Shown here in pieces: positions 5,236 to 17,945 of a DNA stretch of 64,000 nt (its first letter is position 1; each line of letters starts with the position of its first letter). The notes beneath the pieces were generated by a model that saw only the letters and a list, made by a program, of their open reading frames with translations, had not been told where the DNA came from and searched no databases. This DNA is from Candidatus Campbellbacteria bacterium (lineage in GTDB: Bacteria; Patescibacteriota; Minisyncoccia; Phycocordibacterales; EsbW-18), in assembly GCA_045863475.1 (NCBI GenBank), contig BTUR01000002.1, forward strand, positions 410 through 64,409, read 5' to 3'. The position numbers were made by a program, and so were the translations under genes.

Positions 5236-5855
5236 AGGTTGTCTTTGAGGTTTCTCATTGAAACTTGCGTCGTCAGGGTGATTGCCCCCGGCGGCTCCTG
5301 GGCGTCTTTGTCGATGACTATTGTTATTTTTGCCAACCGTACGGTGGATATGTCCACGGGGTCGGAAAGCGGGTCCGTTGTGCCGTCATAGCTGTCGTCG
5401 TAGTAGGCGAAGACGGACGTCGTGCCGTTGGCAACGTCGTGAATGAATTCAGTCACGACTTCGTCGCCAGGGTTGTAGGTCAGTGGTGATCCGGTCGGTT
5501 TTGTGATGCCTTTTTTCAGTATTGTACCGTCGAGGAAGTATCGCACATGCTCTTTGAGTTGGTCGTCGTCCACGTTGCGGTAGAAGGCAATTGATGATGA
5601 GGAAGTTTCTGACAGGGCGTATGCACCGAGACTGGACGGGGAAGCGGAACGAATCTCCGCACTCATCATTTTAAGTCCTCGACGCGCCTCATTCTGTGCC
5701 GTCAGGCTTTCCGAGATGACTCGGTTTATTGAGAAGACATCTTTCTGGAACGCATAGAGGACAAGTCCGAGCACAATGAGCAGTGCAATACCGAAGAGCA
5801 TTTCAACGACAGTGAACCCGAAACGGAAACGATTTTTATTGCGGTGTGCGTTCAT
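5232..5855 (-). CDS. Prepilin-type N-terminal cleavage/methylation domain protein (pseudopilin/minor pilin)
   Basis: N-terminus MNAHRNKNRFRFGFTVVEMLFGIALLIV matches the class III signal (G|FTxxE + hydrophobic helix). Confidence 0.7.
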   Translation of the reverse strand: MNAHRNKNRFRFGFTVVEMLFGIALLIVLGLVLYAFQKDVFSINRVISESLTAQNEARRGLKMMSAEIRSASPSSLGAYALSETSSSSIAFYRNVDDDQLKEHVRYFLDGTILKKGITKPTGSPLTYNPGDEVVTEFIHDVANGTTSVFAYYDDSYDGTTDPLSDPVDISTVRLAKITIVIDKDAQEPPGAITLTTQVSMRNLKDNL

Positions 5856-15952: not shown

Positions 15953-16300
15953 TCAACTCTTCGGTTGAGTGACCCCGGCTTCGATTTCTGCATGGCAATT
16001 CTTACAAACAAGGGTGCATTTTTTTGCTTCTTTCACGATGCTTTCCCACGAATAGGAGAGTCCTTTAACACTTAATGCAAATTCCTTCTTTTTTGAATCA
16101 ATATGGTGAAAATCAAGAGCACCAATGTATTTTTTGTATCCGCAAACGGAGCATTTGCCGCCGAATAACTGTACAAGGCGAGCTTTCTTACCTCGCCTGT
16201 TTTTGACGACCCACGCAGACGCACATTTTCCGCAACGGTACGAACCATCGGGTCGAAGGAAATGTTTTGTTGAGCCGTGTTTTCTACAGATTCGATTCAT
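15953..16300 (-). CDS. Free-standing HNH endonuclease with Zn-finger, adjacent to the intron-containing tRNA
   Basis: CxxC..CxxC plus DFHHIDSKKKEF..CKNCHAEIE (HNH motif). AT-rich codon usage unlike the core genes. Confidence 0.7.
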   Translation of the reverse strand: MNRICRKHGSTKHFLRPDGSYRCGKCASAWVVKNRRGKKARLVQLFGGKCSVCGYKKYIGALDFHHIDSKKKEFALSVKGLSYSWESIVKEAKKCTLVCKNCHAEIEAGVTQPKS

Positions 16301-16381
16301 TGTGCGAACAGTATAACACCACGTGTTAAGGTTGTCTTTTCCCGATAATTCTCTATACTATTTTTAGATGTTCCACAATAT

Positions 16382-16680
16382 TCCGGTGTAGCTCAATGGT
16401 AGAGCAGCGCCCTGTAACACTTGCAGCTTTCTCGAGTAATCGAGATCGAACACGAGGTGAATTCGGTGAAACCCTTCATGTATTTGTGGGGCAATACCGA
16501 GCCAAGCCGCGCACGGCGCGGAAGGTGTAGAGACTATCCCTTCAGGGAGTACTTCTTCGGAAACGAAGCGGGAAGCGCCTCGCCCCCATCATGGTGGGGT
16601 GATGATATAGTCCATACCTGTAGGTAACTACGGGATTCTATGTAAGGCGTTGGTTGTAGGTTCGAATCCTACCACCGGAG
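16382..16680 (+). tRNA. tRNA-Asn(GUU) interrupted by a group I intron. Exon 1 is 16382..16415 and exon 2 is 16643..16680.
   Basis: The spliced product TCCGGTG TA GCTC AATGGTA GAGC A GCGCC CTGT|TAA GGCGT TGGTT GTAGG TTCGAAT CCTAC CACCGGA G has U1-A72 and a CUGUUAA loop, as in bacterial tRNA-Asn. Confidence 0.7.
16416..16642 (+). ncRNA. Group I self-splicing intron (about 227 nt, no internal ORF) in the anticodon loop between nt 35 and 36
   Basis: P1 (exon CUGU : IGS GCAG, U.G at the splice site), P2 CTCGA-GTAA-TCGAG, P7 GACUAU/AUAGUC with a G-binding site, GAAA and GUAA tetraloop hairpins (P8/P9), and an omega-G at 16642. Confidence 0.7.
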
Positions 16681-16693
16681 CTGAGGATAAAGA

Positions 16694-16719
16694 AAAAGCA
16701 CCCGAACGGGTGTTTTTTC
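16694..16719 (+). terminator. Intrinsic terminator after tRNA-Asn
   Basis: GCACCCG aa CGGGTG followed by TTTTTTC. Confidence 0.6.
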
Positions 16720-17507: not shown

Positions 17508-17535
17508 AAGAGCCCGTACGGGCTCTTTTTATTTC
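17508..17535. terminator. Bidirectional intrinsic terminator
   Basis: AAAGAGCCCG ta CGGGCTCTTTTT. Confidence 0.75.
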
Positions 17536-17945
17536 CCGTAGCGGTGCTTCTTCGCAATGCACCGACAGCCGTACGGCTTGATGTGTTCGTCAAAATATTC
17601 CTGCTGATAGTCGTACGTGAGTTCTTCACCCGACGCTATCTTTCGCAGTGCAAAAACGTAAATGCGTCCGCGCAGAATGTCGATTTTACAGTTCGGTGTG
17701 CAGGAGTGATTGATGTACCGCGCGATGTTTTTTCTGCTGCTGCCATCTATAAATCGGTTTTTGTTTGTTTCAAATAGGTACTTGCCACCGCGTGCGTCAG
17801 CCTGTGTAAGTGTCAGTACCGGTCCTGTGTATTCAATAACGAACCCGCGCCGCTCAATAGGCGCGTCGGTAAACAATCCCAGGCCACTGACACCGCGTCG
17901 TACACGCAGGGAACGGGTGATATGTCGGTATTTTTTAGGTAACAC
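17529..17945 (-). CDS. SET-domain protein (putative protein-lysine methyltransferase)
   Basis: GFVIEYTG, NHSCTPNC, ELTYDY and a post-SET Cys (CRC). Confidence 0.75.
   Translation of the reverse strand: MLPKKYRHITRSLRVRRGVSGLGLFTDAPIERRGFVIEYTGPVLTLTQADARGGKYLFETNKNRFIDGSSRKNIARYINHSCTPNCKIDILRGRIYVFALRKIASGEELTYDYQQEYFDEHIKPYGCRCIAKKHRYGK

Follow-up and report, generated by a model that had tools for sequence, protein, structure and literature searches.

The locus described here raises two questions: does a tRNA gene that is broken inside its anticodon loop still yield a normal tRNA, and has the nuclease gene beside it anything to do with the break? We analysed a stretch of 64,000 nt (hereafter the window) of contig BTUR01000002.1 (positions 410 to 64,409 of the forward strand; assembly GCA_045863475.1) from a Candidatus Campbellbacteria bacterium. 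The tRNA-Asn(GUU) gene at 16382–16680 on its plus strand is interrupted between anticodon positions 35 and 36, and an HNH endonuclease gene starts 82 bp from the 5′ end of the tRNA and is transcribed away from it. In our view, the interruption of tRNA-Asn(GUU) is very likely a self-splicing group I intron. A partnership between this intron and the neighbouring nuclease is a more tentative proposal, and it is weighed in the last section.

The interrupted tRNA-Asn gene and its intron

With introns allowed, ARAGORN called tRNA-Asn(gtt) with a 227-nt intron. The boundaries were identical to those given in a first-pass annotation of the window, which had been made from the sequence alone and had described a tRNA-Asn(GUU) split by 227 nt at 16382–16680. 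In its default mode, the same program called four other tRNAs in the window and missed the split gene, and the Rfam tRNA model also left it undetected in the window. Read directly, the 5′ half has the layout TCCGGTG-TA-GCTC-AATGGTA-GAGC-A-GCGCC-CUGU and supplies the 5′ strand of the acceptor stem, the D arm, the 5′ strand of the anticodon stem and the loop nucleotides C32, U33, G34 and U35. The 3′ half, UAA-GGCGU-UGGUU-GUAGG-UUCGAAU-CCUAC-CACCGGA-G, supplies U36, A37 and A38, the 3′ strand of the anticodon stem, the variable loop, the T arm, the 3′ strand of the acceptor stem and G73; CCA is not encoded at its end. When joined in silico, the two exons gave a normal cloverleaf tRNA in ARAGORN, and both the loop CUGUUAA and the pair U1-A72, which had been predicted for the spliced product, are present in the sequence.

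The exon junction was compared with that of natural uninterrupted alleles. We sought genes with window-like exons in metagenome contigs and found at least 120 such loci, which read CTGTTAA. The closest uninterrupted tRNA-Asn(GTT) among the matches listed (locus L152) is identical to the in-silico spliced tRNA at 71 of 73 positions and shares its anticodon stem and loop. Splice boundaries were fixed by the same kind of comparison by Nakagawa et al. (mSystems 2026, PMC13011429; preprint July 2025). Under an explicit rule, all 82 homologous loci in which both boundaries could be fixed gave exons YUGU-UAA on splicing (hyphen at the junction), and the split of the window gene into CUGU, intron and UAA is the sole one that gives both a U before the intron and a G (omega-G) at its end.

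The intervening sequence matched the Rfam family Intron_gpI (RF00028) at 16405–16634, over the full length of the model (1–253 of 253) and above its gathering score (60.3 bits against 50; E = 8e-13). Apart from tRNA, no other Rfam family had a match in the window. In single-sequence folding, the minimum free energy (MFE) was −93.2 kcal/mol (z = −3.18), and none of 200 shuffled sequences was as stable; the MFE and centroid folds recovered P1, P2, P3, P4–P6, P8 and P9. The structure summarised in Table 1 was drawn from the Rfam alignment, the single-sequence fold and inspection, and all its pairs are canonical in the window. The 5′ splice site lies in P1 at a U16415·G16423 wobble, J8/7 directly precedes the 3′ strand of P7, and between P7 and the 3′ strand of P3 (P3′), 37 nt that the Rfam consensus lacks form two hairpins (P7.1 and P7.2).

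Next, we looked for relatives with the search pattern GCAGCTT-N18-34-GGTGAATTCRGNGAARCC, which was derived from a by-eye alignment of the window intron with introns of a published supplement; the scan covered one genome per GTDB species and the pattern is restrictive. At least 119 species genomes carried the intron family. The hosts are Patescibacteria, Nitrospirota, Acidobacteriota/Aminicenantes, Ignavibacteriota, Bacteroidota and delta-proteobacterial lineages, as well as Bdellovibrionota, Clostridia, Binatia, Stahlbacteria, Margulisbacteria, Gemmatimonadota and others. Among the matches listed, the closest introns were found in Adlerbacteria (L089, 75% identity) and in Parcubacteria metagenome-assembled genomes (74–75%), and ARAGORN called most of the homologous loci as intron-bearing tRNA-Asn(gtt) and most of the others, about 30, as tRNA-Thr(tgt/cgt), the known artefact of a 2-nt shift. 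The window intron is among the shortest, just 1 of 81 sampled family members being shorter.

For covariation, 53 members without an open reading frame (ORF) were aligned with MAFFT. Seventy-three columns are invariant, mostly in P1, J3/4–P4, J6/7–P7 and J8/7–P7. Overall, 88.7% of the structure cells were paired against 72.5% in column shuffles (0 of 500 as high), and sliding the partners by 1–3 columns left only 31–48% of the cells paired. The covariation score was 0.439, compared with 0.06–0.14 for the slid partners, and 44 of the 69 pairs showed changes on both sides. Compensatory changes were observed in P1, P2, P3, P4, P6, P6a, P9 and P9.0, and all five pairs of the anticodon stem covary.

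The individual helices differ in what they contribute. The CUGU/GCAG pairs of P1, including the U·G at the 5′ splice site, do not vary in any of the 53 homologues, and the first intron pair of P1 covaries (AU 24, CG 9, GC 9, UA 2). The GUAA-capped P2 has 98.7% of its cells paired with compensatory changes in all six pairs. P3 is 99.7% paired with both-side changes in three pairs, P4 is 100% paired with two covarying pairs, P6 is 100% paired, and P6a is 98.1% paired with all five pairs covarying; in P9, six of seven pairs covary. P7 is 100% paired and invariant in the 53 sequences, so covariation gives no information for or against its pairing. The first-pass annotation had written P7 as GACUAU/AUAGUC: the five pairs GACUA/UAGUC stand, and the sixth falls, as covariation puts U16537 in P7.1.

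RNAalifold, run without the drawn structure as input, recovered the same helices and added P9.0 unprompted. The two P9.0 pairs covary (AU 45, GC 7; and AU 31, CG 10, UA 6, GC 6), and therefore they pin G16642 as the omega-G. The family register of P8 in RNAalifold, which is supported by covariation, is offset by one or two nucleotides. Taken together, the RF00028 match, the intron-tolerant tRNA call, the covariation and the matching uninterrupted genes bear out the earlier proposal of a group I ribozyme with a U·G-bearing P1, GAAA and GUAA tetraloops and a terminal omega-G, and of the P3–P9 core, on whose folding that proposal hung, P3, P4–P6, P8 and P9 were recovered in the fold.

Table 1. 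Positions of the tRNA-Asn gene, the elements of its intron and the adjacent features in the window
Feature	Position	Strand	Basis and remarks
HNH endonuclease gene, 115 aa, intact	15953-16300	-	PHROG, tblastn; 82 bp from tRNA, divergent
Palindrome TAACAC-CAC-GTGTTA	16314-16328	.	Between endonuclease start codon and tRNA -35
Promoter-like TTGTCT-16 nt-TATACT	16332-16359	+	Consensus scan match only; ~22 nt before tRNA 5′ end
5′ exon	16382-16415	+	TCCGGTGTAGCTCAATGGTAGAGCAGCGCCCTGT; ARAGORN intron mode
Group I intron, 227 nt, ORF-less	16416-16642	+	RF00028, ARAGORN, covariation; omega-G at 16642
P1	16412-16417 (exon CUGU + intron AA) with 16421-16426 (UUGCAG)	+	3-nt loop
P2 hairpin, 6 bp, GUAA tetraloop	16430-16445	+	Covariation
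P3	5′ strand CGAGGUG 16453-16459 with 3′ strand CGCCUCG 16576-16582	+	Covariation
P4-P5-P6-P6a domain	16463-16526	+	Covariation; P5 register less certain
P7 (guanosine-binding helix)	GACUA 16532-16536 with UAGUC 16608-16612	+	RF00028 consensus AGACUA / AUAGUC
P7.1 UCCC-UUCA-GGGA and P7.2 CUUCG-GAAA-CGAAG	16537-16568, between P7 and P3′	+	Sequence, fold
P8 hairpin	~16584-16599	+	RNAalifold; exact register in window uncertain
P9, 7 bp, GUAA loop	16617-16634	+	Covariation
P9.0	A16614-U16641, U16615-A16640; encloses P9	+	RNAalifold, covarying
3′ exon	16643-16680	+	TAAGGCGT...CACCGGA + discriminator G; ARAGORN
Terminator-like hairpin CACCCGAACGGGTG + TTTTTT	16699-16718	+	Sequence; 19 nt past tRNA

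Proposed splicing and other readings of the locus

The following course of splicing is proposed. The primary transcript would probably start ~15 nt upstream of the tRNA at the sigma-70-like promoter and end at the hairpin with its T-run. In it, P1 would present the 5′ splice site as the U·G wobble between exon CUGU and intron GCAG, P3–P8 together with the invariant P7 would form the guanosine-binding core, and P9.0 and P9 would deliver the terminal G16642. An external guanosine would then attack after U16415, and the freed 5′ exon would attack after G16642 and join the exons, so that the product would be a normal 72-nt tRNA with the anticodon loop CUGUUAA. The anatomy of the intron, its homology, its covariation and the exon junction are observed; that the window copy is catalytic is suggested by its homology to tested tRNA-Asn 35/36 introns. 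At L122, L125 and L128, the corresponding intergenic regions retain the promoter-like −35/−10 pair. The terminator-like hairpin was also listed on the minus strand by the scan, and A-runs and T-runs flank it on both sides.

Several observations weigh against this reading. The RF00028 score exceeds its threshold by just 10 bits, and any P10 helix with the 3′ exon would at best be a weak one. The registers of P5 and P8 and the pairings of P7.1 and P7.2 are less supported in the MAFFT alignment (59–76% paired), where P7.1/P7.2 show compensatory changes in all pairs yet just 65–76% of paired cells; support for P5, P8 and the extra hairpins is weaker because lengths and family subtypes differ there. 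The modest Rfam score, and the fact that Patescibacteria genomes do lose genes, would also suit a dead relic of an intron in a tRNA pseudogene, with another tRNA-Asn gene serving the cell. We regard this as very improbable: all positions that are invariant in the 53 homologues are intact in the window (including the P1 U·G, P7, J8/7 and the omega-G), all helices pair, promoter-like and terminator-like signals stand on both sides of the gene, and an uninterrupted gene that looks functional matches the exons at 97% identity. Moreover, the interrupted genes are the sole tRNA-Asn copies in the genomes tested by Nakagawa et al. (PMC13011429).

It is harder still to believe in other boundaries or another host, namely a tRNA-Thr(UGU) with an intron at 33/34, or in an intron spliced by proteins. 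The Thr reading owes something to the ~30 homologous loci that ARAGORN names tRNA-Thr(tgt/cgt), and to the 2-nt-shifted reading that both ARAGORN and tFind give for many homologues, an ambiguity described in PMC13011429. For the window itself, ARAGORN calls Asn. An intron shifted by 2 nt would end in A and not in G, U35 is wobble-paired with G in P1 in 53 of 53 sequences, G16642 is pinned by the covariation of P9.0, and the uninterrupted genes with such exons (at least 120) read CTGTTAA. The discriminator G73 also fits tRNA-Asn identity. The shifted tRNA-Thr(UGU) reading was rejected on the intron end, the P1 wobble, P9.0 and the uninterrupted genes.

A described class of tRNA-Asn introns

The first-pass annotation had considered an Asn host unusual. 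This claim is out of date, because tRNA-Asn 35/36 introns were published and tested between 2020 and 2026, and the scan described above alone gives at least 119 species genomes. In the tFind survey by Williams (2020; bioRxiv 10.1101/2020.01.27.920355), the four classical settings of bacterial tRNA introns were extended to 21, and PMC13011429 cites that survey for a class 'Asn.4Ug', which it describes as confusable with Thr.2Ug. Nakagawa et al. (PMC13011429) examined 95 complete genomes of Patescibacteria and found group I introns at 35/36 in 15 genes for tRNA-Asn(GUU) and in 3 for tRNA-Asp. The tRNA-Asn introns self-spliced precisely in vitro, GCA_016700035.1 being an example, and changing the omega-G to C blocked the reaction. 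Of the 28 introns at 35/36 that were present, over any tRNA host, among 4,934 complete genomes, 25 were classed as IA; 19 belong to Patescibacteria, and the others are spread over Cyanobacteriota, Nitrospirota, Bacillota_A, Bipolaricaulota and Pseudomonadota. Four of the Patescibacteria tRNA-Asn introns contain HNH endonuclease genes. With at least 119 species genomes, the family is much wider than these 28 cases in complete genomes.

The window intron is an additional member of this described and experimentally validated class, and is ordinary for the phylum. The TypA protein encoded in the window also points to Patescibacteria: its best relatives, at 77–79% identity, are, where named, Kaiserbacteria, Niyogibacteria, Adlerbacteria, Yanofskybacteria or 'Paceibacterota'. 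It has in common with the published tRNA-Asn introns (PMC13011429) the host tRNA, the insertion point, the phylum, the rule of a U before the intron and an omega-G at its end, and the sequence family, which the paper classes as IA1; standard tRNA finders miss both, and relatives carry HNH ORFs within the intron, whereas the window copy is ORF-less and, at 227 nt, among the shortest. The Asn.4Ug class of the 2020 survey, as named in PMC13011429, has the same break after the fourth nucleotide of the anticodon loop, the U before it and the G at the intron end, and is a catalogue entry only.

Assignment to subgroup IA1 is suggested by homology to introns classed so in PMC13011429. Our alignment includes near-identical relatives of the introns published from Nitrospira and Bipolaricaulota, and the window intron aligns with them over its full length; identity to the IA1-classed introns of Nitrospira japonica and of Bipolaricaulota is 77% and 74%, respectively, over the aligned positions. 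We also considered the classical IC3 subgroup, which comprises the introns in tRNA-Leu(UAA) of cyanobacteria/Anabaena, in tRNA-fMet, in tRNA-Ile(CAU) of Azoarcus and in tRNA-Arg(CCU) of Agrobacterium. These introns are likewise small (~200–250 nt), of self-splicing type and located in the anticodon loop, and they have core motifs in common with the window intron, namely GAAUUC..GAAAC in P4, AGCCAAG, GGUGUAGAGACUA and GAUAUAGUC. They differ in their sites (33/34, 34/35 and 36/37) and lack the two hairpins between P7 and P3′. The IC3 assignment was rejected in view of the two hairpins at that place and of the close homologues classed IA1, although several P4–P6 and J6/7 motifs are nevertheless common with IC3 introns.

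If default finders miss such a gene, a Patescibacteria genome seems to lack tRNA-Asn and its completeness is therefore underscored. This problem of annotation and completeness was already raised in PMC13011429, and the window gene, missed by ARAGORN in default mode, is a case of it.

The divergent HNH endonuclease and a possible partnership with the intron

The 115-aa ORF upstream of the tRNA matches PHROG families of HNH endonucleases (E = 6e-24) and is a marginal match to Pfam HNH (21.7 bits against a cutoff of 21.4). Across 42 homologues the zinc and catalytic residues do not vary, and the AlphaFold2 model of the protein (predicted local distance difference test 92.9) has HNH domains as its best structural matches, though weak ones. 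The 115-aa protein is predicted to fold as an HNH nuclease, and its catalytic and zinc ligands are intact. We found 429 protein homologues; the best 120 of these (clusters) are ~113 aa long and 62–80% identical, and the named ones belong to Patescibacteria. Annotators of the Joint Genome Institute (JGI) named members McrA or Elf1-like.

The protein is also related to endonucleases encoded inside the same family of introns. In tblastn, residues ~31–112 are 40–61% identical to intron-borne ORFs in 31 of 119 loci, among the matches listed; these ORFs have the orientation of the tRNA and occupy the P1 loop of long introns (483–593 nt). The same search with the endonuclease found no homologue inside the window intron, whose P1 loop is 3 nt long. 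An endonuclease gene outside the intron, beside a gene with an ORF-less intron, was observed in the window and in nine other loci. In a neighbour-joining tree, the ~113-aa proteins (long form) make up a clade of their own, in which an N-terminal zinc ribbon replaces the basic N-terminus of the intron-borne enzymes, while other extragenic copies (L024, L084, L059, L063, L065 and L018) nest among the intron-borne enzymes, some of them truncated or mutated. The stages of an endonuclease life cycle are all visible in the family: intact P1-loop ORFs, remnants, loss, and copies outside the gene. C-terminal remnants (..CANCHRELH..) lie in the P1 loop of the otherwise ORF-less introns L100 (952–1267, minus strand) and L014, and decay in copies outside the gene includes an in-frame stop with an H-to-Y change (L087), a C-to-R change (L065) and a truncation (L018).

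We examined the linkage of the long form to tRNA-Asn starting from the nuclease, in eight homologues on long contigs together with the window, L087 and L107. The long-form gene adjoins tRNA-Asn in all 11 loci, and the tRNA bears an intron in ten of them (the window, L087, L107, L122, L125, L128, L131, L133, L134 and L136). The divergent arrangement of the window, with an intron-bearing tRNA, was found in 9 of the 11; in L107 the intron-bearing tRNA-Asn lies upstream of the nuclease gene on the same strand. With three different arrangements, the linkage is not simple synteny. If ~16% of Patescibacteria tRNA-Asn genes carry the intron (15 of 95; PMC13011429), ten intron-bearing loci out of 11 are far from expectation, the loci being related and the figure uncorrected for shared ancestry. 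Starting from the tRNA, we sampled, among the matches listed, 67 intronless tRNA-Asn loci flanked on each side by 500 nt or more, and a long-form nuclease stood beside none of the 67 and a short-form copy beside three. Flanking long-form genes were found at 3 of ~78 intron loci without an endonuclease ORF against 0 of the 67, a contrast too weak to stand alone; the nuclease-first sample is the stronger evidence for linkage.

Some details of these loci are recorded here. In L152 (Ga0307375_10004355; tRNA ~5636–5708), a short-form homologue with 64% identity to an intron-borne endonuclease follows the tRNA on the same strand at a distance of 102 nt, and in L164 and L206 a short-form homologue lies 83 nt upstream of tRNA-Asn. 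The introns at long-form loci belong to at least two subtypes, some like that of the window and others compact (184–214 nt) without the extra hairpins. The compact introns (lengths from ARAGORN) are found in L122, L128, L131 and L133, where P4–P6 is different, the tRNA is on the complement strand, ~75–230 nt upstream of the endonuclease gene, and the endonuclease and intergenic region are the same with near-identical exons. These differences point to a replaced intron, or else to divergence that was very uneven at a single site.

Between the start codon of the nuclease and the tRNA promoter lies the palindrome TAACAC-N3-GTGTTA, which occurs once in the window and overlaps the extended −10 of the endonuclease promoter (16338 to 16310, minus strand). 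It stands 10–40 nt upstream of the long-form gene in seven of seven loci checked, regardless of the position or orientation of the tRNA, and was absent from the checked loci without a long-form endonuclease. Its distal half with the flank, GTGTTAAGG, has TGTTAAGG in common with the spliced junction CUGU-UAAGG; this 8-mer has one occurrence in the 64-kb window, with a post-hoc chance expectation of ~1%. The palindrome may be an operator of the endonuclease gene. The endonuclease I-TevI represses its own gene through an operator similar to its homing site. The window palindrome, which overlaps the nuclease −10 and resembles the exon junction, would recall this autorepression by resemblance only.

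These observations led us to propose, tentatively, that the nuclease and the intron work together in collaborative homing, a possibility to which we give somewhat less than an even chance. The window intron would have lost, or never had, the P1-loop HNH endonuclease of about one-fourth of its relatives among the matches listed, and would be served instead by a diverged homologue encoded 82 bp upstream in a free-standing gene, which would have a promoter of its own and a palindromic operator. The nuclease, of common descent with the intron-borne ones, would cut intronless tRNA-Asn alleles at the 35/36 site, and the nuclease gene and the intron would both be copied by repair. Since the intron splits the target site, it is proposed to protect the carrier's own gene, and the operator resembling the exon junction would hold the nuclease in check. 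For this complete two-part chromosomal system, with cutting of empty alleles, protection by the intron and restraint by the operator, the balance tips rather towards doubt.

Collaborative homing has been described for the psbA intron of cyanophage S-PM2 with the free-standing F-CphI and for mobE of phage T4 with the defunct I-TevIII intron (PMC3984707; PMC2790892; PMC6083498). In these phage systems the genes are protein-coding and cleavage at the insertion site was demonstrated, whereas the setting in the window is a bacterial chromosomal tRNA gene. Unlike them, the window nuclease is a homologue of the intron-borne one and is persistent across a large clade.

In our view there is nearly an even chance that the HNH gene is no homing partner of the intron. 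Its product would then be domesticated or independent, for instance a regulator at the palindrome beside the tRNA promoter or a generic McrA-like nuclease, and the adjacency would be inherited synteny. Identities of 62–80%, a fixed divergent arrangement and an intergenic region conserved in nine loci look like long vertical inheritance and not like recent mobility, and such persistence under purifying selection is atypical for a purely selfish homing gene. The McrA or Elf1-like names given by the JGI annotators, and the two or more intron subtypes that accompany the nuclease, fit this reading as well. Two further points tell against a homing partnership: many related introns without an endonuclease ORF have no nuclease neighbour, and in L127 (3001–3452) a long-form gene, palindrome included, is followed after 33 nt by an uninterrupted tRNA-Asn(GTT) gene, which makes L127 the only one of the 11 long-form loci without an intron. 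The anticodon stem of the L127 tRNA-Asn reads TAACGAG against TAAGGCG in the window. Domestication fits less well with the clear homology to endonucleases inside the same intron family, with the position beside tRNA-Asn in all 11 sampled loci in three arrangements and beside none of the 67 intronless alleles, and with the invariant catalytic and zinc residues.

A free-standing nuclease beside a tRNA-Asn intron appears not to have been described previously. In the literature searched, we found no mention of the nuclease outside the intron, of its linkage to tRNA-Asn or of the operator-like palindrome, and PMC13011429 does not mention endonuclease genes outside the intron. If the homing proposal is true, it would be the first case of collaborative homing, so far a phage phenomenon, in a cellular genome and in a tRNA gene; a large Paceibacteria clade would have conserved it, with living intermediates for the movement of endonucleases into or out of introns. 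The nuclease family could then be a tractable natural series for how homing endonucleases met group I introns, if the target is confirmed.

On the other side of the tRNA, ~850 bp beyond it, lies a gene for a SET-domain protein (17529–17945, minus strand; Pfam E = 2e-22), and L122 and L037 likewise have SET-domain genes no more than ~3 kb away from tRNA-Asn. An identical copy of the neighbouring S1-domain protein was found in only two public contigs, Logan DRR491769 and DRR491768 (L001 and L002). Both end at the point that corresponds to window position ~17530, inside the region of the SET-domain ORF, which suggests an assembly break point.

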